IMG/VR virus record: IMGVR_UViG_3300049235_000005
Coordinates: 1 to 62,499 of that record
DNA length: 62,499 nt
From: a virus
Lineage: Duplodnaviria > Caudoviricetes
Direction: 5' to 3' (one strand)
Positions 37,953-55,100 of the stretch are shown piece after piece (within the stretch, counting starts at the first letter, position 1; each line of letters starts with the position of its first letter). Below the pieces are notes generated by a model. That model did not search any database and had not been told where the DNA came from. It was given only the letters and a program-made list of their open reading frames with translations. Made by a program: the position numbers and the translations under genes.

Positions 37953-40082
37953 ATGAGCAAACTCTCAATCTGTATCCCCTCCCGCAACGAACCCTACCTG
38001 AACCGTACCATCGAGGACATCTTCGCCAACGCGCGCGGAGAAGTCGAAGTGGTAGTTGCGCTCGACGGTTACTGGCCCGAGGGCTGGAAGGAGCTAACCG
38101 CTAAATACCCCAACCTCCACTCGGTCCACTCCGGCGAGCCCATCGGCATGCGCGGTGGGATTAACCGCGCAGTAGCCTCCGCCGCCAGTCGTGGCGCAAA
38201 GTACATCGCCAAGTTCGACGCCCACTGCTCCTTCGGTGAAGGGTTCGACGAGATTCTCAAAGCCGACCTCGCACCCGACTGGATCGTCGTGCCACGCCGC
38301 AAGCGCCTCAACCCCGAGACGTGGACACTGACCGATACCAATAAACCCGACGTTGACTACCATTATCTCAGCTTCCCCGACGACCCGAGCGACTTCGGTG
38401 GTAAGGGACTGAACGGCAAGATCTGGCCGGGGCGTGCAATTACCCGTGCGGAGCACGAGATCGACGAGGAAATGTCATCACAGGGTTCCGGCTGGGCCAT
38501 GCACACGGACTATTTCTACCGGCTTGAGCTAATGGACGAGGCCAACTACGGGAAGTTCTGGAATGAGTTTCAGGAACTCGGGCTCAAGTGCTGGCTCTCC
38601 GGTGGGCGCGTCATGGTCAACAAGAAAACATGGTACTCCCACTGGCATAAAGGGAAATCAGGACGCGGCTACAAACTCCCCGAATCATGGCTCCAGCAAG
38701 GGGCGACCTTCACCCGTAACTGGATCTACAACGACGCATGGGCCAAACAAACCCTCCCCTTTAGCTGGCTCATCGAGCGCTTCTGGCCCGTGCCAAGCTG
38801 GCCGGAGAACTGGCAGGAGGTGTTGTATGCGGAGAGAAAGCCGAGGACGATAGTAGCAGTGACAGGTGCAACGCTTCAGGACATTGATGATCCCGATCAG
38901 GCCAAGCGAGATGAGGAGTTTCCGCCCTTGTTGTTAGGCAAGCCACTCGAAGCCGCCGCAAGCAGCGTGAAGGCGGATGATTATGCGCCAATGGATGGGC
39001 TGGTAATCCAGCACGCTTACTACGGCGTCAAGGACACCTCTGAACATATCGACGTAAGCGAACGTCTCACATCGATGGTAGTTAACGACTCTCTGGACAT
39101 CGTGGTAAACAACTCTACGCTCGTCCCCGGCCAGAATCCGTATCGTGGCAAGAAGAAGACGTTGACGGTTTTCTATTACTACGGCGATGGGCCACTTCAG
39201 ACTATCGAGAGAGATGAGAAGGAATGGTTGATTATTGGAGAAGCGCAGAGAACGGCTAAGCCGGATTTGAAGATTGTGTTCGATAACCCGATGAGCACGC
39301 AGGTTGAGGACTATATCAAAAACACGTCGGTGGAAGTTGGCGGCAAGCGATTCACGCCGTTTGAAGTAGTCCCCGCTCCCGTGAAATCCTATATAGAAAC
39401 TGTCATGGAAGATAAGCCAACCCTGTACGTCCCTGACGGAGTTAACACGCTGGTACCAACCACTCCCGCCGCCCTCAACGACTACCTCATCCGCAAGTTC
39501 TCCATCAGCCCGCAACGCCTCCGTGGGCCAATGCCGATTGAACTGCGGGACTTCCATCGTAACGATCTAGCGCAAATGTTTGCTGAGTTGGGGTTCAAGC
39601 GCGGCGCGGAGATTGGCGTGGCGGAGGGTCGCTACTCCGAGGTGCTGCTCAAGGCCAACCCCGACTGCGAACTACTCCTCGTTGACCCGTGGCACCGTTA
39701 TAGCGATAACCCGCAGGGAAAGTCAGCGGAAAAACACGAGTACGCGTATCAAGAGATGCTGAGGAAGACAAAGGGCTATCACGTGCGGATCGTAAAAGAC
39801 TACTCAATGCACGCGGTGAGAGACGTGCCGCTTCAATTTCTGGACTGGGTTTATATCGACGCTCAGCATCAGTTCGACTACGTGGTTTCCGATCTGGTCG
39901 AATGGTCCAAGCGGGTGCGAAGTGGCGGGATAGTATCAGGGGATGACTACTATCAGCTAAGCGACAGGTGGGGAGCCGGACCAGTGGAGGCGGTACAGGC
40001 GTATACTAACGCTCATAAGATTTCGACGTGGTTTATTTGCGGGGCTCACAAATCGGTGGATTATTTCTGGGTCAAGCCGTGA
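37953..40082 (+). CDS. GT-A glycosyltransferase (ppGalNAc-T-like) + SUEL-like lectin domain + class I SAM methyltransferase
   Basis: SICIPSRNE, KFDAHC, ELGLKCWLSGG, YSHWHK; IQHAYYG..DVS..L...NPYRGKKKTLTVFY; GAEIGVAEG, LVDPW, VYIDAQH, GIVSGDDY. Confidence 0.88.
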   Translation: MSKLSICIPSRNEPYLNRTIEDIFANARGEVEVVVALDGYWPEGWKELTAKYPNLHSVHSGEPIGMRGGINRAVASAASRGAKYIAKFDAHCSFGEGFDEILKADLAPDWIVVPRRKRLNPETWTLTDTNKPDVDYHYLSFPDDPSDFGGKGLNGKIWPGRAITRAEHEIDEEMSSQGSGWAMHTDYFYRLELMDEANYGKFWNEFQELGLKCWLSGGRVMVNKKTWYSHWHKGKSGRGYKLPESWLQQGATFTRNWIYNDAWAKQTLPFSWLIERFWPVPSWPENWQEVLYAERKPRTIVAVTGATLQDIDDPDQAKRDEEFPPLLLGKPLEAAASSVKADDYAPMDGLVIQHAYYGVKDTSEHIDVSERLTSMVVNDSLDIVVNNSTLVPGQNPYRGKKKTLTVFYYYGDGPLQTIERDEKEWLIIGEAQRTAKPDLKIVFDNPMSTQVEDYIKNTSVEVGGKRFTPFEVVPAPVKSYIETVMEDKPTLYVPDGVNTLVPTTPAALNDYLIRKFSISPQRLRGPMPIELRDFHRNDLAQMFAELGFKRGAEIGVAEGRYSEVLLKANPDCELLLVDPWHRYSDNPQGKSAEKHEYAYQEMLRKTKGYHVRIVKDYSMHAVRDVPLQFLDWVYIDAQHQFDYVVSDLVEWSKRVRSGGIVSGDDYYQLSDRWGAGPVEAVQAYTNAHKISTWFICGAHKSVDYFWVKP

Positions 40083-40292
40083 ACGACGATGAGGTGATCA
40101 CCGACGTTCGGCTGTTTCACTGTATTGAGCAGTCGAAACTTGTCCTAACTCTCTGCATAGAAAAGCGACAAGGGGATATACGGCTGTACCACGCAGACTT
40201 TTCGCTTACGCTCTTGGAGGCGATGGTCTTGAAGGCTAGTATAGATCAAGCTGAACTAGACAAGCGGTAAATTATGCTACAATCCCCACCCG

Positions 40293-42038
40293 ATGGCATC
40301 CCCCGCGTTCGATCTCTCGTTCATTATCCCCGCGCGCAATGAGTTCTTCCACGATCTCGATCTGCTCCACCACACTGTCAATAACGTCTTAGCGAACACC
40401 TCCGACCGCTCCCAGATCATCGTCATCCTCGACGGTTACGACTCCGGCTGGCCCCCGACGCCCTTACCAATCAACCCGCGCGTCACGGTCCTGCATCACG
40501 CCAAGTCCATCGGCCAACGTGCCGCGTGCAACGAAGGCGTGCGCGTGTCTAGCGCTAAGTGGATCTGTAAGCTGGACGCCCATTGCGCCGTTGGCCCACG
40601 GTTCGACGAACTGATGACGGCCCAGTGCGATTATCTGACCACGTTGATACCCGTCCAGTACAACCTCCACGCCTTCTCGTGGTGCTGCAAGCAGTGCAAG
40701 CACGAAACCTATCAAGGGCCAAAACCTGCGAAGTGCGCCAAGTGTGGCAGTCGCTACAGCAAGATTGCCATCAAGTGGCAACCGCGTGGCTGGAAGGAGC
40801 GGGACGGGGTCTGGGAGGGCAGGCCGAAGACGACGGCGTGGCGCTTCGATTCAGCTCTGCATTTCCAGTACTGGGGCGAACTTGGCAAGCGCTACCCGCC
40901 CGGCCAGCAACTAACCCCGACTCTCTCCTGTCTCGGCGCGTGCTGGATGCTGCAACGGGAAAGGTACTGGGAACTGGAAGGGATGGACGAGCAGCACGGT
41001 AGCTGGGGTCAGCAGGGGACTGAGTTAGCCTGCAAGTCGTGGCTTAGTGGCGGGCAGATGCTGGTTAACCACGATACCTGGTTTGCGCACTTGTTCCGCA
41101 CGCAGCAGGGGTTTGGGTTTCCCTATGCCAACCCCGGTATCGAGAAGGCCCGTGCGCGCAGTAAGGAGATATGGTTGAACGGCAAGTGGCCCAAAGCCAA
41201 GTATCCGCTGAAGTGGCTGATTGACAAGTTTGCCCCAGTGCCTGACTGGTCCAATACGAAACCGAAGGGCGCGGCGATTTACTACACATGCGGTTCGCAT
41301 GATCAAACGCTAGAACTCGCCGCTCGCAACAATCTGCGCCACTCCACCAACGGCCACGAACTCGGCTGTGTCGCGCTCCAGCGTACCGACTTTGGTGACT
41401 GGACAGTGGTGCTCAACAGGGAGAAGTCTGGGGCGACGATGCACTACCAGATTGTCGCTGGACTGGAGCGGTCTACCGCCGACTACGTGTTTCTGTGTGA
41501 GAGTGACGTGATGTATCACCCGTCACATTTTGAGTTCGTTCCACCTGACGACAACACTATCTACTACAACACCAACGTGTGGCGAGTGCGTTACGGCGAC
41601 GGTCACGCGGTTCGTACCGCCAACCTCCAACAGGTCTCCGGTATCTGCGCCAACCGTGAACTGCTACTAGCCCACTACCGCAAACGAATCGCGTTCATCG
41701 AAGCCCACGGCGGCATCTTCGACACTCGCCGCATGGCCTACGAACCCGGTACGCGCGGCAAGTTTGGCGACGAGCAAATCGACAACTGGCAGTCGGCTTA
41801 TCCGAACCTCGATATCACCGGGCATGGGCAGACGTTGACGACCCCGCACTTTTCCGTTGACAGTTTTCGTAATAAGAAACATGCTGAAGGCTGGCAGGAG
41901 ACTGACGAGGCTCTGCCGGGATGGCCCAAAGTGGCAGGGCGAGTAAAGGAATGGTTGCACGGGCTTGCTACAGGAAGTGCTAATGAAGATGAGCGACCAC
42001 GACTATCGGCGGTTGGTCAAGGAACTGAAAGACCCTGA
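40293..42038 (+). CDS. GT-A glycosyltransferase (ppGalNAc-T-like) with Zn-ribbon insert and a second GT-like domain
   Basis: SFIIPARNE, KLDAHC, CKQC..CAKC, WGQQGTELACKSWLSGG, FAHLFR; C-terminal YVFLCESDVMY. Confidence 0.88.
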   Translation: MASPAFDLSFIIPARNEFFHDLDLLHHTVNNVLANTSDRSQIIVILDGYDSGWPPTPLPINPRVTVLHHAKSIGQRAACNEGVRVSSAKWICKLDAHCAVGPRFDELMTAQCDYLTTLIPVQYNLHAFSWCCKQCKHETYQGPKPAKCAKCGSRYSKIAIKWQPRGWKERDGVWEGRPKTTAWRFDSALHFQYWGELGKRYPPGQQLTPTLSCLGACWMLQRERYWELEGMDEQHGSWGQQGTELACKSWLSGGQMLVNHDTWFAHLFRTQQGFGFPYANPGIEKARARSKEIWLNGKWPKAKYPLKWLIDKFAPVPDWSNTKPKGAAIYYTCGSHDQTLELAARNNLRHSTNGHELGCVALQRTDFGDWTVVLNREKSGATMHYQIVAGLERSTADYVFLCESDVMYHPSHFEFVPPDDNTIYYNTNVWRVRYGDGHAVRTANLQQVSGICANRELLLAHYRKRIAFIEAHGGIFDTRRMAYEPGTRGKFGDEQIDNWQSAYPNLDITGHGQTLTTPHFSVDSFRNKKHAEGWQETDEALPGWPKVAGRVKEWLHGLATGSANEDERPRLSAVGQGTERP

Positions 42039-42106
42039 ACTAATCGCTGAAGTTTTGAAGTGGGTCGAGCAGGACTGGCCGGAAGCTCACCGAGACGCAG
42101 AATCCA

Positions 42107-42499
42107 ATGGCTAACGAATGTCTCGCACAGTTTAACGAGCGCTCCACCGTAACCGTCACGGCTACCTTCATTGACGAGTCCGGTACCGAAGTTGAGCCCG
42201 ACGCTGCTACTTATCGCATTGACGATGAAGCTTCCCGTACCAGTATCCAACCCGCTACCACCATCAGCCCGCTTGGCGAATCAGTTGACCTCGTCATCAC
42301 CAGCGACCAGAACTTCATCGTCAAGTCACGCAACCAGTCGGAGATTCGCACGGTGACAGTGGAATGGGATTATACGTCGGACAATGGCCCGGCCCACGGC
42401 ACGGCGCAGTATCGGTACAAGCTGGTTAATCTGTATGGCGTGGTGGATGTGGCCAGTGCGAGTGTTAGCCCATCAGCGAGTGCATCACCGTCGGCTTGA
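42107..42499 (+). CDS. Ig/BppU-like putative virion protein with C-terminal SP tag
   Basis: Beta-rich TVTVTATFIDESG..EPDAATYRIDD; ends ASASVSPSASASPSA. Confidence 0.7.
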   Translation: MANECLAQFNERSTVTVTATFIDESGTEVEPDAATYRIDDEASRTSIQPATTISPLGESVDLVITSDQNFIVKSRNQSEIRTVTVEWDYTSDNGPAHGTAQYRYKLVNLYGVVDVASASVSPSASASPSA

Positions 42500-42786
42500 T
42501 TATGATCACCTTAACCGAACTTGAAAGACGAGTGATAAGCGCCGCGATTTACGCGGTCTGTGGTTCGGGTAGCATTACAGCTCAGTGCCGTAGTGACGCG
42601 GCGGTGCTAGTGCTGGTTTGGGCGCGAGCTTCGGGTAAGACGCAGTTCGACGCTGACGACATAGACGCTAAAACCGAGCAGGCTTATCGGTACTTTGAGT
42701 TTGGTGATTCATTTGGCGAGCCGGAACCCGAGTGGGCTATCTGGGACGATCCAAGTCCGAGTGCCAGTACCAGTCCGAGTGCATAA
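42496..42786 (+). CDS. Hypothetical protein with C-terminal SP tag
   Basis: Ends PSPSASTSPSA. Confidence 0.65.
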   Translation: MIMITLTELERRVISAAIYAVCGSGSITAQCRSDAAVLVLVWARASGKTQFDADDIDAKTEQAYRYFEFGDSFGEPEPEWAIWDDPSPSASTSPSA

Positions 42787-42798
42787 AAGGAGATAGCA

Positions 42799-43134
42799 AT
42801 GAATCCGTATTCAGGCGATATTGAACGATTTCCACGAGAGTTACTGAACAACATTCCCGTACGCGAGAGTCAGTTCCCGTTTAAGCAACCACCGCCACAG
42901 CAGGAAGTCCCCGAAGGCTGGCTGTCGCTGACAGAAGAAGAGGCTGCCGAGTTTGAGACGCTTCCTAAGCGAATGCGAATTGAGCGCTACATGAAATATC
43001 ACCGTGCCGAGAAATGCGCGGCCTGCGGTGGCTTTGTCGGCAATCACAGCACGAATAAGTTTCTCAAGTGCGCGGCGGGTGAGCTAGCAAGGATCGACTT
43101 ACTCCGATTGGAGAAGGAAGAAGTTACCGCGTAG
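42799..43134 (+). CDS. Hypothetical protein with CxxC-H-C motif
   Basis: AAAAGGAG RBS; CAACG...HS...C. Confidence 0.65.
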   Translation: MNPYSGDIERFPRELLNNIPVRESQFPFKQPPPQQEVPEGWLSLTEEEAAEFETLPKRMRIERYMKYHRAEKCAACGGFVGNHSTNKFLKCAAGELARIDLLRLEKEEVTA

Positions 43135-43137
43135 TCA

Positions 43138-44835
43138 ATGGGCAAACCTTTCCCATCATGGACCTACGATGACGCCGCCAACCGCATTGGCGCACGGTTC
43201 GCCCTCCCGACTGAGGGTACGCGAGACTTTCGCTTACCATCCATTCTCGAAGATCTCATCGGCGTCAGCGATCACCGCCCTGCTACTCGCCGTACGGAGA
43301 CTGCGCTACGCGCGACAATGTTCTATCAGGCAGACCACTGGCAAGGCGGGACTGGGTTCATCGGTCAGTTACCGCCCGCTTCCCTCCCCGGTGCGGAATC
43401 AATGAAGAACGCGATTCGCAAAGCTTTCGTCTCGGAGAACGTGGTCAAAGAGGTAGTGAAAACCCACGTCGGCGGGATACTGGGCCGCGAACCTTCGTGG
43501 TCCTTCATGGTTACAGAAGGCGAGGAATCTCGTAACCAGTTCTCCAAAGAGACAGGTAATACGCTGACTCGCTGGTGGAATGATCGACTCGCGCTCAAGG
43601 ATCTCCAGAAGGCCGCGCGTATCATGGTTTGCGAAGGGACGGTTGTGCGGCGGCTGGTGTTCCCGCGTGGGCGATTAGCAGGCGGGACTAAACCTAATGC
43701 TTCCACTCTACTTGCCGCTCTCGACTTCATCTTCTTCGAGACGGTGTACGCAGATCGCGGCATGGTCTACACCGACCCTGAGACGATGGCGGATGTTGGT
43801 ATCTTCCTGTTTGATGAACTGGATGCGAACGGTGACGTGAAGACCAACTGTGCCGAACTCAGTTATCTCAACGATGACGGAGACACTGTTTGCAAGATTG
43901 TCCGCGACAAAGGCGCGCCAACTGAGTACCCACCCTATCCTCTCGGCGGTCGCCTACTCATCTACGAGATGACCCGAGACGCGCTAATCACCGAACAGAT
44001 CCAGTCGAACCAGCGCGCGGTCAATCTGGCCCATACGCAGATGATCCGCAACGTCAACCTCGCAGGCCATCGCCAGCAGACGATTACCAACGCGGTTCCA
44101 CCGGGGCCAACCAATGAGAAGCCGACGATCACCGAGGATACGACGAAGGTGGACGCGACTCCCGCTACTACTAGCCCTGTGACCAAAAAGTTTCCCGGCA
44201 CGTTCAAAACAGGTGCAGGGGCAGTCAACTTCCTGATGGGTATGCCGATCTACAGCGAAGAGGGCATCGTCGTCGGCTACACCGACCCCGGCATCAACAT
44301 CAGTGATCCAGTGTCGGTTGAAACCTTTGAGCGCACGATTGAGCGCGAGAAGGCGGCTATTTACGCACAGGCCCATCAGCGTCATGTGCTCATCGTTGAC
44401 AAGGCCGACACCAGTGGACGTGCCCGTGAAGTAGCCCGGCGTGAGTACGAGCGCTCGCTGAAGGAGTCGAAGACTGAACTCGACGCCTGTGGTCGCTGGC
44501 AGTTGGAAACAACCTTGCGTCTCGGCGCGTTCATCATCGGCGAATCGTCCCGCTATCTTCCCCTCCGCGCCGACTTCAACACGCTAATTGACGCTGGAGC
44601 ACCTGACCCTGAACAGCAGCAGATGGCCTTGCAGATGCGCCAACCGGGCGGCATGAAGAATCGTCCGTTGATTAGCGATGAGACTGCGCGGGCGCTTAGT
44701 GGCGTGGAGGATAACGCGGCTGAAGAAGCACGGATCGACAAAGAGGCAACGATGCCCGAGGCCGATCTACCCGAGAATCCGCAAGCTGTACCCGGCCAGC
44801 AAACGCCCAAACCTGCCAGCGAATCCGTTAATTAA
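43138..44835 (+). CDS. Portal protein
   Basis: 565 aa; FYQADHWQGG...ENVVKEVVKTHVGGILGREP...SGRARE...ISDETA; precedes scaffold and capsid. Confidence 0.8.
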   Translation: MGKPFPSWTYDDAANRIGARFALPTEGTRDFRLPSILEDLIGVSDHRPATRRTETALRATMFYQADHWQGGTGFIGQLPPASLPGAESMKNAIRKAFVSENVVKEVVKTHVGGILGREPSWSFMVTEGEESRNQFSKETGNTLTRWWNDRLALKDLQKAARIMVCEGTVVRRLVFPRGRLAGGTKPNASTLLAALDFIFFETVYADRGMVYTDPETMADVGIFLFDELDANGDVKTNCAELSYLNDDGDTVCKIVRDKGAPTEYPPYPLGGRLLIYEMTRDALITEQIQSNQRAVNLAHTQMIRNVNLAGHRQQTITNAVPPGPTNEKPTITEDTTKVDATPATTSPVTKKFPGTFKTGAGAVNFLMGMPIYSEEGIVVGYTDPGINISDPVSVETFERTIEREKAAIYAQAHQRHVLIVDKADTSGRAREVARREYERSLKESKTELDACGRWQLETTLRLGAFIIGESSRYLPLRADFNTLIDAGAPDPEQQQMALQMRQPGGMKNRPLISDETARALSGVEDNAAEEARIDKEATMPEADLPENPQAVPGQQTPKPASESVN

Positions 44836-44841
44836 CCACTT

Positions 44842-45048
44842 ATGACCACCCCTATCCCCTGCGACCGTGACGACTGCAAACTACCGTCTGCGCGAGTTCA
44901 AAACGGCGTACTCGTCATCGAATCCCGCCATCACGGCGAAGTCCACCGCTGCACAATATCGCTACACTGGCTAGAGAAACTATTGACTAACTGTGACAAA
45001 CCTGTGTTAGAGTGTGCCGGAACGGTTTCAAGTCTACCTGACCGTTAG
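44842..45048 (+). CDS. Small hypothetical protein
   Basis: 68-aa ORF between portal and scaffold. Confidence 0.5.
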   Translation: MTTPIPCDRDDCKLPSARVQNGVLVIESRHHGEVHRCTISLHWLEKLLTNCDKPVLECAGTVSSLPDR

Positions 45049-45078
45049 TTGACAATCTTCTCGCTGCTTCTCCTGTAA

Positions 45079-45126
45079 GCCCGCTATTGAGTGAGTCTTA
45101 GTACTCCTTCGATGGCGGGCTTTTTT
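45079..45126 (+). terminator. Long hairpin terminator or attenuator upstream of the head genes
   Basis: GCCCGCTATTGA...TCGATGGCGGGC followed by T6. Confidence 0.7.
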
Positions 45127-45158
45127 ACTTTTACGCAACGCAGAAAGCCAGAGGCTCA

Positions 45159-45887
45159 ATGCTGAAAATCTACAACACGCTGGAAGATGTGCCAGAGGCA
45201 GATCGCCAGCATTACGTTAAATCGGACGGGAAGTACGTGCCCCAGCTTTCCGACGACCATCCCGTGCTCGTGCATAACAAGCAGCTGCTTTCCGAGAAAG
45301 CGACCGCAACGGCGCGAGTAAAGGAACTAGAGGCCGACGCGGCGGTTGCTTCCGAGAAGTCGATCCCCCGTGGTCACGTGGCGATAGCGAAGGCCGATGC
45401 CGATCTCCTCGGCAAGTACAAGGAGCACGGCACACCGGACGAAGTGGCAGTCAAAGTGACCGAACACGACACGATGAAGGCCGATCTCGACAAGCGTCAG
45501 CGTGACGACTCGCTACGGCAGGCGTCTAAGGCCCTCGGGTTCAACGGGGAGGCGTTTATCCGACTGCCCAACCTCCCTGAGTTCATCTCAAAACCCGGCA
45601 AGGACGGCAAGACCGTCGAGTGGTTTGCGCAGTTAAAGGACGACAAGGGCGTGATTACCGAGAAGCCTGCGAAAGAGTTTGTCGAGTCGTCCGCCGACAT
45701 TACCCCGTTTTTACCGTCGCTGAAAGCAGCTACGAAACAAGTCGAGCTTCACGGCAGTCAACTCTCAACCGAACCATCATCCGGCGACCCCTTCGAATGG
45801 GCGCGTAACTTTGGCAAGAACTGGAATGAAAGCAGGCCCAGCACCGATGTCAAGGCTGCTTTTGGAATTGGCAACGCGGCGTCATAG
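45159..45887 (+). CDS. Capsid scaffolding protein
   Basis: LEDVPEADRQHYVKSDGKYV N-terminus, coiled coil, position. Confidence 0.75.
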   Translation: MLKIYNTLEDVPEADRQHYVKSDGKYVPQLSDDHPVLVHNKQLLSEKATATARVKELEADAAVASEKSIPRGHVAIAKADADLLGKYKEHGTPDEVAVKVTEHDTMKADLDKRQRDDSLRQASKALGFNGEAFIRLPNLPEFISKPGKDGKTVEWFAQLKDDKGVITEKPAKEFVESSADITPFLPSLKAATKQVELHGSQLSTEPSSGDPFEWARNFGKNWNESRPSTDVKAAFGIGNAAS

Positions 45888-45899
45888 GAGACTGAATCC

Positions 45900-46319
45900 A
45901 TGCCTCTATCGATGAAGAAAACAGTTGGAACCAGCACCTATGGGCCAGTGTTTATTGGCGACGTGCTGGGTATGCAGCAGGTGGTGGTCGATATCAGCGA
46001 GCTAACCACCGCTGAAGTGGACGCCGACGGTTGGCTCAAACCCGGCGTGGCGTTCAAGAAAGACGGCACCGTGGCGGACGGTACGGGCGGTGAGTTTATC
46101 TACGCCGTCAACCCCGAGCCCCAAAACCTCCGTATGGCCGTCATCCCGCCAACCGACGCCACCCTCGCCGCCGACACTCGTCTCTACCCCCTCGGCATGG
46201 GCACGATTGGCGAAGTGAACCGCGACATTGCCGAGGACAACATGGGCCGTGCCTACAACTCCAACGAACTCGCGGCCTTCAACGCTGCCGGATCGATGAT
46301 TCACCTAACCAACACATAA
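45900..46319 (+). CDS. Head decoration protein (lambda gpD-like position)
   Basis: 139 aa; GWLKPGV; immediately before the capsid gene. Confidence 0.65.
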   Translation: MPLSMKKTVGTSTYGPVFIGDVLGMQQVVVDISELTTAEVDADGWLKPGVAFKKDGTVADGTGGEFIYAVNPEPQNLRMAVIPPTDATLAADTRLYPLGMGTIGEVNRDIAEDNMGRAYNSNELAAFNAAGSMIHLTNT

Positions 46320-46333
46320 GGAGCGCTTGAGCG

Positions 46334-47383
46334 ATGAGATCACTAATCCCCGTAGTTGAGGAGCTATCGCCTCCCTCTCTTACTGTGGTGGCACAGACCA
46401 TTTCCGCCAACGACTCCGGTCGCCTGCGCTGGTCCACCTTCTTCCCCCGGCAGGACGTAGACTCGGTTGACCTGCGTGAAGTGACGACAATCGACTTCCG
46501 CCCCACCTCGGATCGACGTGAGTGGAACTCGCGCGGGCGACTCATCCCCGATAAGACCCCACCGACTCGTGAACTCTCGATCATTCCCGTCGAGGGCTAC
46601 TACAAGTGGAACGAGTACGAGATGCAGAAGCTGGCCGAGCGGGCAGCGGCTAACTCAGAAGTCATCGACCAGATCATCGGGCGTTCCATCCCCGGCAAGG
46701 TGGCGCAGATCGTCGAAGCCAACTATCGCCGTATTGAAGTTGATGCTTTCACCGCATGGGCTACCGGCACCAACGTGGCAATGAACCCGCAGACAGGGCA
46801 GACCACGGCGTTCACCTTCGGCTTCCCGGCAGACCGTCTCACCACGGCAGGCACCGCATGGGACGACCCCGGCCAGAATGCCTACGATTTACTGATCTCC
46901 TTTATCGAAGATGCAATTGACAAGATTGGCCCGGTGGTCGGCGTGGTCCTACGTACCGCTCTCCATCGCGCCATCCACGCTGACGCCCCCAACGGCCCAC
47001 TGGGCACAATCATCCCGCGTGGGCGTATCGCCGAGCAGGTCAGCGACGACCTCGGCATTCCCTTCAACTTCTTCCTGTTTGACGACACGCTGGAGGTGTT
47101 TACCGATGGCGGTATCACAACCACCCCGGCAAACGTCTGGCCTGCTGGCTACATTGCCGCAGTGCCATCAGGCGGGGTAGTTGGCCGCACGGCCTTTGCG
47201 CCAGTGAAGCGCGCAATGGAGATGGTGCGGTCGTTGCCAAAAGCTGGCATAGACCAGCGCGGGCAAACAGTCTACTACGACGAGTCGGTGATGGGACGTG
47301 ATTTGACGGTTGAGGTCCAGGTTAACCCACTGACGATCCCGAACGAGCAGAAGCTTCGGGTCGAAAACACACTCGTCACATAG
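46334..47383 (+). CDS. Major capsid protein (lambda gpE-like, HK97 fold)
   Basis: 349 aa; FFPRQDV...RRIEVDAFTAWATG...TAWDD...; position. Confidence 0.8.
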   Translation: MRSLIPVVEELSPPSLTVVAQTISANDSGRLRWSTFFPRQDVDSVDLREVTTIDFRPTSDRREWNSRGRLIPDKTPPTRELSIIPVEGYYKWNEYEMQKLAERAAANSEVIDQIIGRSIPGKVAQIVEANYRRIEVDAFTAWATGTNVAMNPQTGQTTAFTFGFPADRLTTAGTAWDDPGQNAYDLLISFIEDAIDKIGPVVGVVLRTALHRAIHADAPNGPLGTIIPRGRIAEQVSDDLGIPFNFFLFDDTLEVFTDGGITTTPANVWPAGYIAAVPSGGVVGRTAFAPVKRAMEMVRSLPKAGIDQRGQTVYYDESVMGRDLTVEVQVNPLTIPNEQKLRVENTLVT

Positions 47384-47394
47384 GAGTCGAATCG

Positions 47395-47613
47395 ATGGCC
47401 AAGGACAATCGCGAAATAATCCACGGCATCCGCGTGATGGTAGCCCCGAGCGAGGGACGTAGAACGCCGCAGTCGAAAACCCTCGCCTCCGGCATGGAAG
47501 ACGAGCTCGCCAACGCCTTCACGCAGAAGGAGCTGGACGCGATGAAAGAGCGGGGCGACATTACCGGCAACTGGAAGTCCACCAAAGGCAAGTTCACGGC
47601 TAAGGAAACTTAA
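47395..47613 (+). CDS. Small post-capsid protein
   Basis: TAGGAG RBS; 72 aa. Confidence 0.65.
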   Translation: MAKDNREIIHGIRVMVAPSEGRRTPQSKTLASGMEDELANAFTQKELDAMKERGDITGNWKSTKGKFTAKET

Positions 47614-47661
47614 CGAGCTACGCACGGCTAACGCCGGAGATCCCAGTGGTCAGGAGAGCTT

Positions 47662-48069
47662 ATGTGGTTTCAAAAGATTAACAACCGCCTCATGCGCACT
47701 TATTCGAACAACGGGCGCACCTATGGGGCGATTGCGTTTGGACGAGACTCAGCAGGGAAGTATGTGGTCGTGGGTTGTGAGACTGATCTTGTAGTCGACT
47801 CATTGTTTACGAATGGCTCAGCAAGTGGCTATGGCAAGGGCTCCATCTGTATGCGTATCGCAGGTGGGATGAGCGTGGTTGACGCAGACGGCCTGTGGCA
47901 GACGGTCACGTTGACGACGGTGAGCCAGTCGGTTTCTCCAAGCCACTCGGTTTCGCCTAGTTCGTCAGCTTCAGCCAGTGCCAGCTCGTCGGCTTCGTTA
48001 TCGCAGTCGCCGAGTGCGTCGGCGTCGCGAAGTGTTTCGCCCAGCGCATCGGCCAGTCCGTCGGCGTGA
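47662..48069 (+). CDS. Putative capsid decoration/fibre protein with ~48-aa C-terminal Ser/Pro tract
   Basis: YGKGSICMR domain followed by SQSVSPSHSVSP...SASASPSA. Confidence 0.75.
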   Translation: MWFQKINNRLMRTYSNNGRTYGAIAFGRDSAGKYVVVGCETDLVVDSLFTNGSASGYGKGSICMRIAGGMSVVDADGLWQTVTLTTVSQSVSPSHSVSPSSSASASASSSASLSQSPSASASRSVSPSASASPSA

Positions 48070-48075
48070 TGAGTT

Positions 48076-48408
48076 ATGCCAAGCCCTACTCCGACAGACG
48101 AGGATATCGACTTCGTACGCGAGGTCGCAGGTGAGGGCAGTTTTGAATTCGTCGCCACGCTCATTGACAACTTGAACGACGCGCAGTGGTCCCGAGCGTT
48201 GGACTTCGTTACCGCTTGGAACAACTACGAACCCGGTAGTGTGATGGAGTTGGTGAATGGTGGCAGAGAGGGTGTGAACGAGAAGGATCAGGACGCGCTG
48301 ATGGATATTCGACGAAGGTTGCGACTCCTGCTGGGCCTGCTCGAGTTCAGAGATGGAGACGCTAGCTTCTTCCGCTCAACTTCAGTGCCGGTGCTATGGG
48401 TATTTTAA
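48076..48408 (+). CDS. Putative head-tail adaptor
   Basis: Helical 110 aa; position. Confidence 0.5.
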   Translation: MPSPTPTDEDIDFVREVAGEGSFEFVATLIDNLNDAQWSRALDFVTAWNNYEPGSVMELVNGGREGVNEKDQDALMDIRRRLRLLLGLLEFRDGDASFFRSTSVPVLWVF

Positions 48409-48411
48409 CCA

Positions 48412-48774
48412 ATGGACCGATCAACACGTATCGCCCGAGCAATAGCCCGCGCACACGACCGACTGCGACCGATCTTTGTGCAGGAACAATGCGTGAAGCT
48501 GCTGGCAGGAGACCAGAACAACTGGGGCGAGCCGATTGCGAGCTACGACTCCCACTGGTATCTCGACAAGCACGAGTATTTAGATGTCGCGGCGGGCAAG
48601 CGTTACAAGCGGCTGCTGATCGACGACGTGGAGGGATGCAGGTTGGCTAAATTGAAAGCAATGACAGCGGTGCAGATTGGCGATGACATCTACACCTTTC
48701 ACGGCAAGGATTCATTCGTTGGCGCGGTGCCGAATTACGAGTTTAAGGTGGTCCATGCGGGAGTGAGGATTTAG
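48412..48774 (+). CDS. Putative head closure protein
   Basis: Beta-rich 120 aa; position. Confidence 0.5.
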   Translation: MDRSTRIARAIARAHDRLRPIFVQEQCVKLLAGDQNNWGEPIASYDSHWYLDKHEYLDVAAGKRYKRLLIDDVEGCRLAKLKAMTAVQIGDDIYTFHGKDSFVGAVPNYEFKVVHAGVRI

Positions 48775-49215
48775 ATGGGCGAGTTAGTCACAATCGAACT
48801 TGGCTCAATCTTCCATAACTTCCGCTCGCGAGTGGAAGGGTTGCGCGACAGTGTCACCGCAGCCGGTGGCAAGATTCTCCGCACCGAGGAAGAGTCCAGT
48901 ATCCGCCTCCGCTGGTACGACCGAGGGGTGACGTTGCGCTCGCTACAGGAGCAGACCACCACCGAGGGAGAGGCGCGTATCTACCGCCTGTTTCCCACCG
49001 CCACCAGCAAAGGCGGTGCTCCTTATCCGCTGTTTGGTGAGTACGGTACGGGACGCGAAGGGGCGCGGACAGGTGGACCACCTCCAGCGAGCTATCGGTA
49101 CGGCGATTCAAAGGGCATGCGAGCACGGCGCTACGGTCGCATTGCGGTGACGCAGGCGAGGCCGAAGGTGATGGCGAAGGCTGGCGAACTAATACGGAAC
49201 TTTACGGTGAATTGA
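48775..49215 (+). CDS. HK97 gp10-like tail completion protein
   Basis: GVTLRSL...YPLFGEYGTG...GMRARRY. Confidence 0.7.
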   Translation: MGELVTIELGSIFHNFRSRVEGLRDSVTAAGGKILRTEEESSIRLRWYDRGVTLRSLQEQTTTEGEARIYRLFPTATSKGGAPYPLFGEYGTGREGARTGGPPPASYRYGDSKGMRARRYGRIAVTQARPKVMAKAGELIRNFTVN

Positions 49216-49383
49216 GATGAACTACTGGGAACGTTCAGACAGGCGTGCAATAGCGCGAGTAAAGGAGTCCGAGGACATGCTTTACCTCCCTGACTATCTT
49301 GACGCTGAGGGCCTACAGGTGTGGTACGGCGACATTCACCGCTGCGTGGTGGACGGTATTCTTGAATACGTTGGCTATTAAAT

Positions 49384-49947
49384 GTGCCAGTTCCAACCGC
49401 AAACCAGATTAAGACGCAGTTGAAAACCTTGCTGACCCCCGTTATCGGCACGGCGCAGACGAAGAAGGTAAAGATCTTTGACTACTTGGCACTGGCGTTC
49501 AAATCGGAAGAGGGGACGGAGGTAGCAATTCTGCGCTCACCTCTCGATGTAGCCACTCTTTCCGGCGGCGGCACCGTCCAGCGTGTGAATTGCTTAATGA
49601 TTAGCGAAGCATCGTTCACGCAGGCGAAGGTTCCCGCCAAAGAGGACTACACGCGACTGATTACCACTCCGCGTGGCAAGAACACCATCAGTCGCCAGTT
49701 TCGCCTGACCTACTTCTACCAGTTTGGCGACTCCAGTGAGAACACGTTCTCTACGAACGTCGAGCTAATCAGGACGACCCTGAATAACGTTCCTAAACTT
49801 GGATTCACGGTACCGGGAACAGGCGAGTGGGTAGAAGGACATGACGAGTTGCAGATGCAGGCAATGGACCCTGACAACTTTGGTACAACGGTGGTGCATG
49901 TGGGATTTGGGTTACTAATGGTGAGACTAATTGAGGCACTGGGATGA
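49384..49947 (+). CDS. Putative tail terminator
   Basis: Position before the tail tube gene; alpha/beta pattern. Confidence 0.5.
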   Translation: MPVPTANQIKTQLKTLLTPVIGTAQTKKVKIFDYLALAFKSEEGTEVAILRSPLDVATLSGGGTVQRVNCLMISEASFTQAKVPAKEDYTRLITTPRGKNTISRQFRLTYFYQFGDSSENTFSTNVELIRTTLNNVPKLGFTVPGTGEWVEGHDELQMQAMDPDNFGTTVVHVGFGLLMVRLIEALG

Positions 49948-50501
49948 AATTATCAGAAGCAATACGTGAAGGCTCCAAGCTCCGGCCCCGAGTCGGCGTG
50001 CTGGGCGAGAGATTCTCCCACGTCGAAGGGCGTGGGCTATGCTCTGACATTTGGGGCGCAGCGGTGGAAGCCGTTCAGCCAGCGGTGGCAAACTTCAACT
50101 GGAACAAATCCAACACCGATGCTTTTCAACGTTCGATGGATGCGTTTCGCGCTATCCAGCTTCAGTATTTCGCACCCTACTTCCAGATGCCCTTGCACTG
50201 TCCCGGCCTACGTCAAAACGTGATGAAGGTGGGCGGGCGGCTAATCAACCGCTTTGGCAAAGAGCCGGAACTGAAGACCTACGACAGCTACGCGCGTATT
50301 GAGAACTTCGGCGGTATCACCAGCGAGTGCCCAAAGGTGGAGCATCTTGCGGGTATGGTGGACCACTTGTATCACAAGCATCGTGTTCTAGCAGAGAAGA
50401 TCGCCAACTGTGTCGAGGAGTATGAAAACGCCTGCGAGCAGGGGGCACGACAAATCGCAATCAATCGTAATTTCACGCATTACGCAGCCAATTGGAGGTA
50501 A
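49944..50501 (+). CDS. Hypothetical protein inserted in the tail operon
   Basis: MKLSEAIREG N-terminus; ATGA-coupled. Confidence 0.7.
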   Translation: MKLSEAIREGSKLRPRVGVLGERFSHVEGRGLCSDIWGAAVEAVQPAVANFNWNKSNTDAFQRSMDAFRAIQLQYFAPYFQMPLHCPGLRQNVMKVGGRLINRFGKEPELKTYDSYARIENFGGITSECPKVEHLAGMVDHLYHKHRVLAEKIANCVEEYENACEQGARQIAINRNFTHYAANWR

Positions 50502-50504
50502 CTT

Positions 50505-51335
50505 ATGGGACTCTGGTCAGGACAAGGCCCGGTATTCTGGGCCAATCGAGACGCGAACGGCGATCCAATCGCTCCTTTCACGTGGTTTGGTAATGCGCCC
50601 ACGTTCGAGTTCGGCATGGCCGTGGAGGAACTGACGCACAAAGAGTCGTACTCCGGCCTGCGCGCTATTGACGCGCGCATCGATACCGAACTGAACTCCA
50701 GTGTCAATCTCACGGTTGACGACTTCAAGGAAACGAATCTGGAGTTGGCTGCCCGTGGTGAGGCTTCAACTCTGGCTGGTGGAGTAGTTACAGCCGAAGT
50801 GGTACTCAGTGGCGCGCCTGCACTTAACACGCTTTACGCAGTTAAGGGCGCGACCGGGCGTGTGACCGGATTCACGCTCACCGACAACGGTTCTCCGATC
50901 ACGTCAACCAAGTACTCGTGGGACGCGTCAGGCGTGTTCCAGTTCAACGACATCGCAGGCATGACCGGGCCAATTGCTGCCACTTACACTAACGCGGCCT
51001 CGCGCCAGCTAGGTGTATTCAAGCGCGCCGCGCCTGAAATCTGGGTGCGGATGATTGGTAAGAACACGGCAGTAAACTCCGGTGTGGACTTCGAGCGGCT
51101 GATTGTTGATGCGTTCAAGGTACGGCTGAGTCCTGCCGAGACGATCAGCCTCATCAGCGACGAGTTCAATACGCTGGCGTTTACAGGTTCGGCGCTGGCT
51201 GATACTACTCGTGCGCAGTCCGACCCCGAAGGCCAATTCGCACGGTTCATCTACCTCGACCCCGGTTCCGCTGTAGCGTCAGCCTCGGTGAGCCCGTCGG
51301 TGTCGCCATCGGCTTCAGCGAGTCCGTCAGCCTAG
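50505..51335 (+). CDS. Major tail (tube) protein with C-terminal SP tag
   Basis: WSGQGPV...WFGNAPTFE...THKESYSGLR...KVRLSP...LISDEF..L.FTGSALAD; ends ASASVSPSVSPSASASPSA. Confidence 0.88.
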   Translation: MGLWSGQGPVFWANRDANGDPIAPFTWFGNAPTFEFGMAVEELTHKESYSGLRAIDARIDTELNSSVNLTVDDFKETNLELAARGEASTLAGGVVTAEVVLSGAPALNTLYAVKGATGRVTGFTLTDNGSPITSTKYSWDASGVFQFNDIAGMTGPIAATYTNAASRQLGVFKRAAPEIWVRMIGKNTAVNSGVDFERLIVDAFKVRLSPAETISLISDEFNTLAFTGSALADTTRAQSDPEGQFARFIYLDPGSAVASASVSPSVSPSASASPSA

Positions 51336-52160: not shown

Positions 52161-55100
52161 ATGGCTGACGGAACCAAATTAATCATTGAACTGCAAACCA
52201 TCCTGCGCGGGTTGAACCAAACCCTGCGCGGGCTGGACCAGATCAAAAAGAAGCTGGATTCGGTTGCGGCAATCAAGGTTGGCGTTCAGCCTACTCAAAA
52301 TACCAGCAAGGCCACAATTGCTGCGCAGAAACTGTCTCAGCAGCAGGAAAAGCTGGGTGTACAGGCGCGGGAACTAGCTAACCGTCAAGAAAGGGCACGT
52401 CAAGTCACCGAGAGACTGGCTCTTTCGCAGCAGCGGCTTAGCACTGCCCAGCAACGCACAGCGCGAACTACCGGAGCACAGGCCGACGCGCACGTGCGCG
52501 CGTTCAGGGCTATTCAGAAGGGGATCGATACCGCCGATGGTCACGTTAAGGCATTTCGGGCAAGTGAAGCCGCGCTGGCCCGAGCGCCGCAACTGGACGC
52601 TCACGTGCGCGCGTTTCGTGCGGCCGAAGCGGCCACGGAGGCGTTTAATAAAAAGGTTGCAGGCTTAGGCAACTCGCTCCGCAGCATCGGTCAGGGACTA
52701 TCAACTGTGGGTGCAACGTTGAGCGCGACGCTAACCCTGCCGCTTGTTGCTGCTGGGGCCGCGTCGGTCAACGCGGCGGTCCAACTCGACTCGTTGAAAC
52801 GCGGCCTCACGGCCATCGTCGGGTCGTCAGTGGAGGCAAATCGCCAGCTTGAACGGTTGACGCAAATCGCCAAACTCCCCGGCATCGGGTTTGAAGAAGC
52901 GATTCAAGGGTCGATTAGGTTGCAGGCAGTGGGGTTCAGCGCCCTTGAGGCCGAGCGATCTCTGCGCCAGTTCAGCAACGCGATTGCGCTGACAGGTGGA
53001 GGACGCGATGAACTTGCCCGCGTAACTGTCCAACTGGGCCAACTCGCCGCAAAGGGCAAGGTGCTGAGTCAGGATCTCCGGCCTATCATCGAAGCGGCCC
53101 CTGCCGTGGGTCGCGCGCTACTGCAAGCGTTCGGTACAGTGAACGCTGCTGACATTCAGGAACTCGGACTCTCGTCGAAGGAGTTTCTCGGCATTCTGGT
53201 TGGTGAGCTTGAGCGCCTTCCGCGCGCCGCTGCTGGCGCAAAGAACTCGTTTGAAAACTTCCGTGACGAAGTGTTTCGTGCGGCAGCGACGGTAGGCGAG
53301 GCGCTACTGCCCGCGCTTACTCGGCTAGTGGAGGTAGTTGGACCAGTTATCACAACCCTTGCCAACGCCTTCGGTAAACTCCCTACCGCCGTGCAGGTTG
53401 TTGTCATCGGTTTCGGCGCACTACTAGCAGCACTTGGCCCGCTAGCGTTTATTACGGGTCAGTTAGCCACTGGATTCGGACGCCTGCTGGTTGGATTCGC
53501 TCAGCTCAACGCCATCGGCATCCTGCCCACGATTCGCAATCTTCGCGCCCTCGTGGCCGGAACCCTCACCGCCGCGCAGGCCAATCGAACCCTCGCCGCC
53601 ACTACTGCTCTCGTCACTGGCGCAGTTGGGCTTATCGCCGCCGCGATCACGCTCGCTGTCGGTATCTATGCTGGCTATAAAGCCACGCAGAAGGATTCGG
53701 TACGACTCAGTCGTGAACAAGCCGACGCGCTCACTGATCAAATCAACGGGCTCAAGAAGCAGTCAGAGTTTCTCGGCACGCTGGAGAGTGGAACGAAGCG
53801 CACTGCCGACGAACAGGATCGCCTGCTGGAGATTTACGAGAGCCTCAACCGCACGGCGAAGGTGCGTGTTACGGGGATTAAAGACGAAGAGGAACGACTA
53901 GCTGCCCTGCGAGAGGAAATCGCCCGAGTTGTTGCCCTTCGTGAACAGGAACGCATCCAGCAAGCCGCGTCCGTGACCGCCGAGCTTGCCAATAATCTAC
54001 TCAAGGTCAAAGCCAACGAAGAAGAACGAGATGCGATTGCGGGGCGCATCCAAGCGAACAATGAACTGGTCCAGACACTGGAAAAAGAACAGGTAATCAG
54101 CGCCGCATCCACTCGCGCGCTGGCTGAACGCAGTATCACCGCCAGTACGGTCCAGTCAGCAATCGGGGCCCTTAAGACTGAGTCGGAGAACCTGTCGGAG
54201 TCTCAGGATGAGTTGATCGCTTCCAGCAAGGAACTGACTGCGCTTACGAAAGACGAAGTTGAGATAGTTCGCGCGCTTGAGCGGCAGACCGGGCTCACCG
54301 CACGCCAACTACTCCTCGCCGCGCAAAGTTCAGGTAAGTTCCGAGGTGATATCGCAACCATCATCCCGATACTGGAGCGCTACGTTGAGCAGACCGACGC
54401 GGCCACTAAAGCTACTGACCGACTGAACAAATCGCTGAGCGAGAATGCAGCCAAGCTGAACGAGGCAGGTCAGCGTGCGGACGATGCCGCGAAAGCGCGC
54501 CAGACGATTATCTCGTCAGCGGCAGCAGTCGCCCGTGAAACCAGCCTCAACTTTGACGGAGCGCTGAAATCCCTGCGTCAGATGGTCAACGCTGTCCCTG
54601 AACTGGCGGCATCGCTGAAACGTGAGAGTGAGCTGACGGGTAAGACGCTGAATGAGCTATTACAGGAGGCGCTGGAAGGATCGTTTAGAGGCCGCGAGAA
54701 GGACAAGTCAGGTACCGCGCTCCGCAACGCACAGGAACAACTCAATGACGCCCTCGCTCGTGTCCAACAATCAGCCAACGACCGGACCATCGCCGAGGAG
54801 CAGGCGAAGAACGACCAACTGCTTCGTATTAACGAGCTGCGGTTTAACCGCGAGTTAACCAGTTTCAAGCAGTTCGTCGTTGAACGCGCACGGTTGCAAC
54901 GGCAACAGGTTCAAGGTGAGATAGATCGCCAGCAGGAGATTGCGCGGTTAGCTGACGAGGAGGCGCGACGACAGCGGGAACGGGCAGGTGTTACTACCGG
55001 CGCGGAGCGAATCAAAGCGCAGGCCGGTGAGCAAAAGGCGCTGGCCGAGCGAACGCAAGCCGAGACGAAGATTCTGGAACTCCAGTCACGCCAGCGTCAG

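Follow-up and report, generated by a model that had tools for sequence, protein, structure and literature searches.

Serine-repeat tails on proteins of the virion gene block of an uncultivated siphovirus suggest phage-encoded, mucin-like O-glycosylation

According to PMC12363180, mycobacteriophages glycosylate the proteins of their capsid and tail tube with their own enzymes, and chemical proof of phage-encoded virion glycosylation comes from only a few mycobacteriophages, in which antibody recognition was altered. The mycobacteriophage virion glycosylation study is cited in PMC12582341 as Freeman et al. 2023, Cell Host Microbe. Here we analyzed a 62,499-base stretch of DNA (hereafter the window), which is a complete IMG/VR virus record (IMGVR_UViG_3300049235_000005, estimated to be 90% complete) of an uncultivated siphovirus, and we describe serine-rich tails and longer tracts of Ser-x dipeptides, written (Ser-x)n or (S-x)n, on proteins encoded in its virion gene block, together with two glycosyltransferases, GT1 and GT2, encoded beside them. 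The phages in which the 2023 study by Freeman et al. found virion O-glycosylation are said to be Che8, Corndog and Myrna, and Che8 is the one compared with the window below.

Two further systems offer points of comparison. The eukaryotic polypeptide N-acetylgalactosaminyltransferases (GalNAc-transferases) of CAZy family GT27 act on mucin repeats rich in Ser, Thr and Pro. The serine-rich repeat adhesins of Gram-positive bacteria contain hundreds of residues of a Ser-x dipeptide repeat, in which x is mostly Ala, Val, Glu or Ile, and on a surface fibre this repeat is a densely used acceptor of O-glycosylation. These adhesins (Fap1, GspB, SraP, PsrP) are O-glycosylated on Ser/Thr by GtfA/GtfB, as stated in PMC8498110. 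Our literature search, which covered titles and the beginnings of abstracts, listed no paper that deals with phage enzymes like GalNAc-transferases or with (S-x)n tracts in virions.

The window resembles the mycobacteriophages in encoding glycosyltransferases of its own, whose action on the virion is proven there and putative here, and it resembles Che8 in that a shared ending stands at the C-termini of otherwise unrelated proteins, the high-copy tail tube included. The shared ending of Che8 has only two or three residues (capsid ...NKTGS, tube ...YSDGS), whereas that of the window is an (S-x)n tract, and the window also has very long internal tracts and whole mucin-like proteins, unlike Che8. 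As in the serine-rich repeat adhesins, the presumed acceptor is a long Ser-x dipeptide repeat, whose tracts in the window are from 10 up to 350 residues long. The adhesin systems, however, use a GT-B (GT4) GtfA/GtfB pair and dedicated (accessory Sec) export, whereas our scans named only GT-A enzymes; moreover, Pro makes up 32% of x at loci with the enzyme, and the carriers are virion parts, not cell-wall adhesins as in Gram-positives. From the shared serine tails on particle proteins and the two GalNAc-transferase-like enzymes, we infer that this phage probably sugar-coats its own particle. The reading that we favor, with a probability of about 0.68, is that of a phage-encoded, mucin-like O-glycosylation of virion proteins in which the (Ser-x)n tracts would be the acceptors.

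Serine tails and tracts in the window

The first-pass annotation of this DNA had listed five C-termini with a common serine-rich ending, and all five read as it stated. The ending ...SPSxSxSPSx before the stop codon is found on four frames within 42107-51335 and on the tail fibre:

42107-42499, + strand: 130-amino-acid (aa) protein, ending SASVSPSASASPSA before the stop; 14-residue tail at 42455-42496
42496-42786, + strand: 96-aa frame with a TTG start, ending SPSASTSPSA before the stop, at 42754-42783
47662-48069, + strand: 135-aa protein with a 48-residue (S-x) tract that runs to the stop, ...SVSPSASASPSA, at 47923-48066
50505-51335, + strand: tail tube, ending SASVSPSVSPSASASPSA before the stop, at 51279-51332
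1-1263, + strand: last part of a tail-fibre-type protein (phrog_1082 positions 550-902), ending SPSASPSI before the stop

For comparison, stop-to-stop frames of at least 70 aa were counted in the window and in 80 random viral loci (1.09 Mb), drawn by an arbitrary 14-mer. The ending SPSxSxSPSx-stop occurred in 5 of 347 window frames and in none of the 5470 frames of the random loci, and an ending of (S-x)5 in 5/347 and 1/5470, respectively. At their ends, the 130-aa and 135-aa proteins and the tail tube are identical at 13 of the final 14 positions, and the DNA under these residues has a nucleotide identity of 20-24 out of 42 and a third-position identity of 3-4 out of 14. Both types of Ser codon, AGY and TCN, are mixed in every tract but the tag of the 96-aa frame, where AGT is used five times. 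Since the codons are scrambled under near-identical endings, it is the peptide and not the DNA that is conserved, in line with what the first-pass annotation had proposed. Slippage and gene conversion were considered as the origin of the identical tags, and were rejected on the mixed Ser codons and the near-random third positions. Orthologues of the 135-aa protein (7 sequences) keep the Ser register of the tail without change, and those of the 130-aa protein (6 sequences) keep each tail Ser, whereas at position x of these orthologue tails A, V, P, S, T, H, L, M or Q was seen. Judged from these alignments, the peptide of tails and tracts is under selection.

Outside their tails, the tagged proteins have no mutual similarity. 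The earlier count of four unrelated proteins holds for three independent ones, with the fibre in addition; it fails for the 96-aa frame, which obtained its tag by insertion. This frame has no orthologue in 8 related loci, and its last 25-30 nucleotides match the 3' end of the 130-aa gene of relatives at 82-88% identity. Because this DNA is homologous to that 3' end, the tag of the frame is inherited and not independent; downstream of it, the ribosome-binding site and the start codon of the next gene also match locus L007, in a comparison made by eye. From these matches, the 96-aa frame is probably a gene inserted within the tail-coding DNA of the 130-aa gene, such that the former tail end, the ribosome-binding site and the next start codon come after the insert. 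The slot after the 130-aa gene (42496-42798) is variable, and each relative has different DNA there. Small accessory genes may use tag-coding DNA as a recombination joint.

A six-frame scan found the identical (S-x)n grammar in long internal tracts as well. Three other proteins have long tracts of 96-350 residues, and the window as a whole holds 9 tracts of at least 6 repeats, with 752 residues. The internal tracts close with SPSx before the next domain begins (...SASPSP followed by APV, ...SPSPSA by PPP, and ...SVSPSP by API). The C-terminal tag is the shortest form of the (Ser-x)n tract and not a separate device, and the dedicated C-terminal tag that had been proposed for this DNA was abandoned for this reason: the tract of which the tag is the minimal form is often internal, or makes up whole mucin-like proteins. 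The same observations bear on the possibility that SPSxSxSPSx-COOH is a C-terminus-specific recognition or docking signal, one that would serve to prime the enzyme or to label proteins for assembly and would thus be more than a final acceptor repeat. All five C-terminal tags of the window fit the motif, against 0/5470 random frames, and three unrelated proteins agree at 13 of 14 terminal residues over scrambled codons. Furthermore, tags of different proteins are slightly more alike within a genome (8.5 of 10 residues) than between genomes (8.0 of 10). We nevertheless regard such a signal as improbable. The motif is not specific for the C-terminus, because internal tracts end in SPSx too; in other phages with the enzyme only 18 of 103 tract-bearing frames have the tract at the C-terminus, and it is more often internal or part of a whole mucin-like protein; the excess within genomes is slight and depends on one or two splits between lineages, which makes the enzyme-docking role suggested in the first-pass annotation, as opposed to a plain acceptor role, a doubtful one; and one of the tags was inherited through insertion. 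Concerted evolution of the tags within genomes was set aside on the same weak difference.

The remaining tract carriers of the window are the following:

33785-36592, + strand: mucin-like protein, 935 aa (six-frame tract scan)
58601-61405, + strand: gpJ-like tail protein, 934 aa (Pfam, PHROGs)
61402-62499, + strand: tail-fibre-type protein, first part (Laminin_G_3, E 1.8e-9; phrog_1082 positions 506-573)
2806-2829, + strand: internal SPSPSPSA stretch in a 668-aa protein (1285-3291), kept in the relative G001

Among the tract carriers, a virion role is recognized for three: the tube of the tail, the gpJ-like protein and the protein of fibre type. The tail tube (276 aa) matches phrog_807 at E 3e-51 over aa 3-250. 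Its family body extends to about aa 251, residues 252-276 are an added tail, and the last 18 of these are (S-x)9; residue 251 would face outward, since the family is named 'major tail protein with Ig-like domain'. In the gpJ-like protein, a 96-residue (S-x) linker (60434-60721) lies between a Phage-tail_3 body and a Laminin_G_3 domain. The fibre has tracts at 1063-1182 and 1189-1260, 64 residues together, and its orthologues in the relatives G001 (724 aa) and G002 (705 aa) end in tracts of 72 and 50 residues.

The 130-aa, 135-aa and 935-aa proteins have no recognized role, and all three are encoded in the virion gene block. The 130-aa protein was modelled as a beta-sandwich with a predicted local distance difference test score (pLDDT) of 74. 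A fold search with this model gave no PDB match at E <=0.001, the best being phage neck/collar proteins (E 8e-3), and five unnamed viral models matched at E <=0.001. Because these fold matches are weak or unnamed, we call the protein only a beta-sandwich of probable virion location. The 135-aa protein, encoded directly after the major capsid gene, consists of an 87-aa beta-rich body and the 48-residue tract; its model is poor (pLDDT 52), the Atlas comparison gave only unnamed viral clusters (0.89-0.90), and no family was found for it in Pfam, PHROGs or Atlas. The tails of both proteins were modelled as disordered, with pLDDT below 50.

The 935-aa protein has globular parts at aa 1-216 and 367-546, tracts of 150 aa (34433-34882) and 350 aa (35423-36472), and a short C-terminal end, ...ARFSARQARVEFSV. 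Pfam and PHROGs gave no family for this protein, its N-terminal domain and C-terminal end included. Its orthologues have 1421 aa (G001, 38253-42518) and 1408 aa (G002, reverse complement 39817-44043), with longer tracts. The length of this mucin-like protein thus varies from 935 to 1421 aa among close relatives via tract expansion. The orthologue set of tract-bearing proteins is kept in both of these complete relatives, G001 and G002, and the tract lengths differ greatly. Searches of Pfam and PHROGs with the 130-aa, 96-aa and 135-aa proteins, the globular parts of the 935-aa protein, the C-terminal half of GT2 and the middle of GT1 yielded nothing usable. The sole hits of those scans, phrog_912 (E 0.006) and DnaJ-like_C11_C, were discarded, the latter as uninterpretable.

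Two glycosyltransferases beside the tagged genes

The genes for GT1 and GT2 are adjacent and lie directly upstream of the genes for the 130-aa protein and for the protein in portal position:

37953-40082, + strand: GT1, 709 aa; Glycos_transf_2, E 7.4e-9 (aa 5-124); Methyltransf_24, E 4.1e-13 (aa 553-666)
40293-42038, + strand: GT2, 581 aa; Glycos_transf_2, E 9.2e-14

The two enzymes are paralogous over about their first 320 residues (aa 4-283; 28% identity, E 1e-32). GT1 is built from an N-terminal GT-A domain with the motif DAHC, a middle domain to which no role was assigned, and a C-terminal Methyltransf_24 domain. It matches, at E 1.6e-98, the profile A4, an alignment of 12 diverse catalytic domains that was used for our searches. 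The catalytic features of GT2 are D95-x-H97, a Zn-ribbon insert, the motif WG..G.E...K.WLSGG and H266. When GT2 alone was compared with the PDB, 15 of the 17 rows at E <=1 were polypeptide GalNAc-transferases (best E 3.7e-5), matched over the Gal/GalNAc-T motif. A profile of 9 sequences again found mainly polypeptide GalNAc-transferases, which made up 15 of its top 16 matches, the best being 1xhb at E 8.9e-11; a paper about a Toxoplasma O-glycosyltransferase cites the remaining one, 8uhv. In the profile alignment, aa 207-296 cover the Gal/GalNAc-T motif and the His after it, and the DxH region 'ldahc' aligns to LDAHCE of GalNAc-T1. D95-A96-H97, E244 and W250-L251-x-G253-G254 do not vary among 12 diverse members of the family, in which G239 and H266 are at least 90% conserved. 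From the alignment, we take H266 to be the third metal-binding His.

Four cysteines (C132, C135, C148, C151) are also invariant, and form a Zn-ribbon-like CxxC insert in the catalytic domain of GT2 (40686-40745, aa 132-151). GT1 does not have this Zn-ribbon stretch. Homologues are annotated at source as RNA polymerase RPC12/RpoP, rubrerythrin or Zn-ribbon regulator, presumably owing to the insert. Residues 326-581 of GT2 gave template modelling (TM) scores of 0.61-0.66 to Glycos_transf_2 domains in the Atlas structure comparison, and this C-terminal half may, as a lead only, resemble a second GT-A domain. The enzyme family comprises 1035 cluster representatives at E <=0.001, and the matches of GT1 in GenBank phage records are through its methyltransferase domain only.

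The GT27 polypeptide GalNAc-transferases are the best solved relatives of GT2, and the DxH (LDAHC in both), the Gal/GalNAc-T motif and a His-x-F-R element align between them. The presumed acceptors of the window also resemble GT27 substrates in being disordered, Pro-containing repeats rich in hydroxy amino acids. Unlike GT27 enzymes, GT2 has no ricin-type lectin domain, its C-terminal half perhaps being like a second GT-A domain, and a Zn-ribbon is inserted in its catalytic domain. The glycosyltransferase domain starts at residue 5 in GT1 and at residue 9 in GT2, leaving no room for the N-terminal membrane anchor of GT27 enzymes; action would be in a prokaryotic cytoplasm. Another difference lies in the window-type acceptor, which has Ser strictly at every second residue and almost no Thr (1.8% of x). 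As for Che8, its gp108 and the GT1 of the window both combine Glycos_transf_2 with Methyltransf_24, and the Pfam match of its gp110 is Glyco_transf_25, which is not GalNAc-transferase-like.

Pfam scans of 59 window frames named Glycos_transf_2 (GT-A) as the sole glycosyltransferase family, with no GT-B and no Sec family, and the modifying enzymes recognized near the tracts are only GT-A glycosyltransferases and one methyltransferase. This inventory bears on a different proposal, in which the serines would carry another modification (phosphate, glycerol- or ribitol-phosphate, or a non-sugar group), or the tracts would be by-products of repeat DNA that is prone to slippage and is carried along by a mobile enzyme cassette. 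Sequence does not reveal the donor substrate, and tract length swings among close relatives (935 versus 1408-1421 aa), as would that of expanding and contracting repeats. The sole modifying enzymes recognized nearby, though, are the GT-A glycosyltransferases and the methyltransferase, and the AGY/TCN mixture with near-random third positions opposes recent slippage or gene conversion. We give both forms of this proposal very little credence.

Tracts and enzymes in other viruses and in genome bins

Both enzymes are carried by 5/5 related records, which are close kin. A scan of viral sequences with profile A4 confirmed at least 523 relatives, from which 80 loci were taken, at 44-53% identity (80% for L021) and with a guanine-plus-cytosine (GC) content of 0.32-0.67. 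An (S-x) tract of at least 6 repeats was found on the strand of the enzyme at 62 of these 80 loci. At least 50 tract residues were present at 57/80 enzyme loci and at 0/80 random viral loci (Fisher p 1e-24, a value that overstates independence because near-duplicates such as L024/L025, L030/L031 and L068-L070 occur among the 80 loci). The enzyme loci held 28,286 tract residues on the enzyme's strand and 62 on the opposite one, versus 320 tract residues in all 80 random loci together. At these loci x was Pro in 32%, Ala in 21%, Val in 13%, Ile in 9%, Glu in 7%, Leu in 6% and Thr in 1.8%, and the longest tract outside the window had 584 residues. The spread of GC content and gene content shows that many lineages are represented among the 80 loci; enzyme and tracts co-occur across very different phages. 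The association with DAHC glycosyltransferases that the first-pass annotation had anticipated is therefore a strong one, present both in the related records and at the wider set of loci.

A PHROG scan covered 55 of the 101 distinct tract-bearing frames from the other enzyme loci. Sixteen of the 55 scanned proteins matched a PHROG, and of the six with a named role five are virion parts (a minor tail/virion structural protein, a tail terminator, two head closure proteins and a tail fibre assembly protein) and one is an amidase. In genome bins, a scan confirmed 151 enzyme relatives, and such tracts were found at 48 of 80 enzyme loci. The bins are mostly those of candidate-phyla bacteria, DPANN archaea and uncultured Gammaproteobacteria. 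The enzyme with neighbouring tracts is common on contigs binned as Patescibacteria, DPANN or Gammaproteobacteria (L220-L299), some of them 100-900 kb long.

The search was also run in reverse. A DNA pattern for Ser-Pro-Ser-Ala repeats led to 79 viral loci, 14 of which (on 12 contigs) have at least 50 tract residues. The enzyme was found within 10 kb at 4 of these 14, at 0/65 loci without long tracts and at 0/80 random loci, with 80/80 in the positive control. Of five tract-bearing records with no enzyme nearby that were searched whole, both of those at least 90% complete matched the enzyme, one strongly (3e-131) and one weakly (1.6e-8). In this small sample we found no complete phage genome with long tracts but without the enzyme.

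Phages that have the tail genes and not the enzyme were reached with a tail-tube profile, which found relatives at 53-57% identity and eight complete tubes (L306 being cut before the end of its tube). Three loci (L302, L304, L308) have tubes of 281-287 aa with (S-x) tails, together with a GT2 homologue and tagged 130-aa and 135-aa proteins. The tubes of the other five (L300, L301, L303, L305, L307), at 54-56% identity, have 251 aa and no tail, ending in ...RLIYFDA or ...RFIYFDA, and these ends coincide with the start of the tail of the window tube. No homologue of GT2 or of the tagged 130-aa and 135-aa proteins was found within 10 kb of the five tail-less tubes. Moreover, the enzyme profile matched none of their five records, two of which are at least 90% complete, while it matched 3/3 controls (the window, G001 and G002). 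The comparison with tail-tube homologues from relatives without the glycosyltransferases, which had been suggested as a check, thus came out in favour of that annotation, with 5/5 tail-less tubes and 0/5 records with the enzyme. More distant enzyme-less homologues behave alike: of 233 GenBank phage records with a match, all 25 that were listed cease to align at query residue 235-253, and three inspected GenBank homologue genes and the solved homologue 8rk3_q end there also.

One of the enzyme-less genomes, G008, is complete and can be compared with the window gene by gene: the tube is 56% identical, the tape measure 55%, the gpJ-like protein 43% and the fibre 37%. It has no tract of at least 6 repeats, where the window has 9 with 752 residues in all. 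The gpJ-like protein of G008 has 649 aa against 934, and the alignment covers 628 columns, from which it follows that the C-terminal third, with the linker and Laminin_G_3, is missing. The genomes G006 and G008 (L309-L316) have the tail module and the helicase-methylase (62%) in common with the window, and not the head module, the enzymes or the tracts. Module mosaicism is plain here, and the tracts come and go together with the enzyme cassette.

These comparisons also bear on whether the tracts could be unmodified disordered spacers or bristles, such as linkers or entropic hairs of the tube, with the glycosyltransferases acting elsewhere, for example on envelope polymers of the host, in superinfection exclusion or receptor change. 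Linkers rich in Ser and Pro are common among secreted enzymes, models show the tails as disordered, the tract of the gpJ-like protein sits in a linker position between its body and Laminin_G_3, and the glycan of the reading that we favor is putative. Against this, the tracts travel with one enzyme family through genomes with GC contents of 0.32-0.67 (57/80 versus 0/80), and enzyme-less relatives with homologous tail genes have no tracts. Furthermore, Ser is fixed at every second residue while x is free, C-terminal tails link nothing, and the nearest solved relatives of the enzymes glycosylate peptides, not lipids or polysaccharides. Unmodified spacers therefore appear unlikely to us.

Several further observations weigh against O-glycosylation of the tracts. 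As regards co-occurrence, 18 of the 80 viral enzyme loci have no (S-x) tract nearby (10 kb), and 32/80 enzyme loci in genome bins have no tract of at least 50 residues within 10 kb. In the reverse search, 10/14 long-tract loci have no enzyme within 10 kb, and of the five records searched whole the three fragments, 18-33% complete, gave no enzyme match. Three contigs from giant-virus bins (L328, L361, L370) have 58-154 tract residues and no enzyme within 10 kb. As regards the proteins of the window, the major capsid protein has no tag and ends in ...RVENTLVT (...RVENTL[VA][TV] in 6 homologues), whereas the capsid protein of Che8 shares the ending of its tube. The tagged 135-aa protein, whose gene adjoins that of the capsid, may fill the acceptor role of the capsid.

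The enzymes themselves add to these points. The likeness of GT2 to GalNAc-transferases is remote, to judge from its single-sequence E of 3.7e-5, GT1 alone gave no match in the PDB, and Pfam found no Ricin_B_lectin in GT1 or GT2. BLASTP detected no similarity of GT1 to Che8 gp108 (E 0.73) or of GT2 to gp110 (E 1.4), and GT2 had no tblastn match in 50,697 GenBank phage records. No genes for nucleotide-sugar synthesis were recognized in the Pfam scans of the window. Finally, for the enzyme family as a whole, glycosylation is a putative activity.

A putative sugar coat and its genomic setting

The mechanism that we propose for O-glycosylation of the virion starts from a (Ser-x)n acceptor tract, with x mostly Pro, Ala, Val or Ile, placed on proteins of the virion gene block, where the tags would be the minimal acceptor form on proteins with free C-termini. 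During infection, the two soluble phage enzymes would draw on nucleotide sugars of the host, and GT1 and GT2 would attach a sugar to serines of the disordered tracts in the cytoplasm, before or during assembly. The second GT-A-like domain of GT2 and the methyltransferase domain of GT1 would then extend and methylate the glycan. The assembled particle would carry a dense glycan brush along its tail and on its fibres; for the tail, the density follows from the 9 Ser among the last 18 residues of each tube subunit. Tail length is about 1.5 Å per tape-measure residue, and a hexameric ring of the tube takes about 4 nm. A tape measure of 1588 aa would thus imply a tail of roughly 240 nm with some 330-360 tube subunits, and at 9 tail serines per subunit the tail alone could carry about 3000 sites. 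Candidate roles of such a coat are shielding, colloidal stability, and adhesion to host or environmental polymers.

The other features of the window to which these proteins belong are the following:

31815-33449, + strand: large terminase (Pfam/PHROGs)
43138-44835: 565-aa gene in a portal-like position, no family match (Pfam, PHROGs)
46334-47383, + strand: major capsid protein (Pfam/PHROGs)
52161-56927, + strand: tape measure, 1588 aa (Pfam/PHROGs)
5012-5446, + strand: small protein among late genes, borderline PAS-domain match
10027-12396, - strand: SNF2-type helicase fused to an N6/N4 DNA methylase
12448-13608: DNA polymerase III beta clamp

According to Pfam and PHROGs, the virion genes run on the + strand from about 31.8 kb to the end of the record and resume at base 1, and a tail chaperone gene was also recognized in this block; replication genes lie on the - strand. 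The fibre-type gene is split by the record ends: its frame at the end matches phrog_1082 over positions 506-573, and the frame that starts at base 1 does so over 550-902. Because this gene spans both ends, the record, which is classed as linear, is either circularly permuted or a copy of the genome that was cut at its termini. In genome bins, the closest relatives of the capsid gene, at 50-54%, are L319 and L320, two contigs binned as Acidobacteriota, and the longer of them has neither enzyme nor tracts. These contigs are a weak hint of Acidobacteriota as the host phylum of the phage.

Beyond this one phage, we lean slightly towards a wider view, namely that many hosts, among them candidate-phyla bacteria and DPANN archaea with which such phages are binned, have tailed phages that run a cytoplasmic, mucin-type O-glycosylation with soluble GT27 relatives and a portable (Ser-x)n acceptor, of which a ten-residue version (VSPSASASPSA-COOH) would suffice as a mark on any protein. 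Compared with the proven mycobacteriophage cases, a different enzyme family and a very simple acceptor grammar occur together here. If the chemistry is true, sugar-coated phage particles would be far commoner than known, with a bearing on phage adsorption, on stability in soil and water, and on how the immune system recognizes therapeutic phages. A convenient test object is offered by the small, easily expressed tail tube with its short C-terminal tag, and the tag would in that case be a small, genetically encoded one for cytoplasmic O-glycosylation. Prokaryotic viruses would then have a widespread, undescribed route to sugar-coating and a branch of the mucin-initiating enzyme family of their own, with close functional relatives of the animal mucin-initiating enzymes, and the origin of GT27 would become testable.

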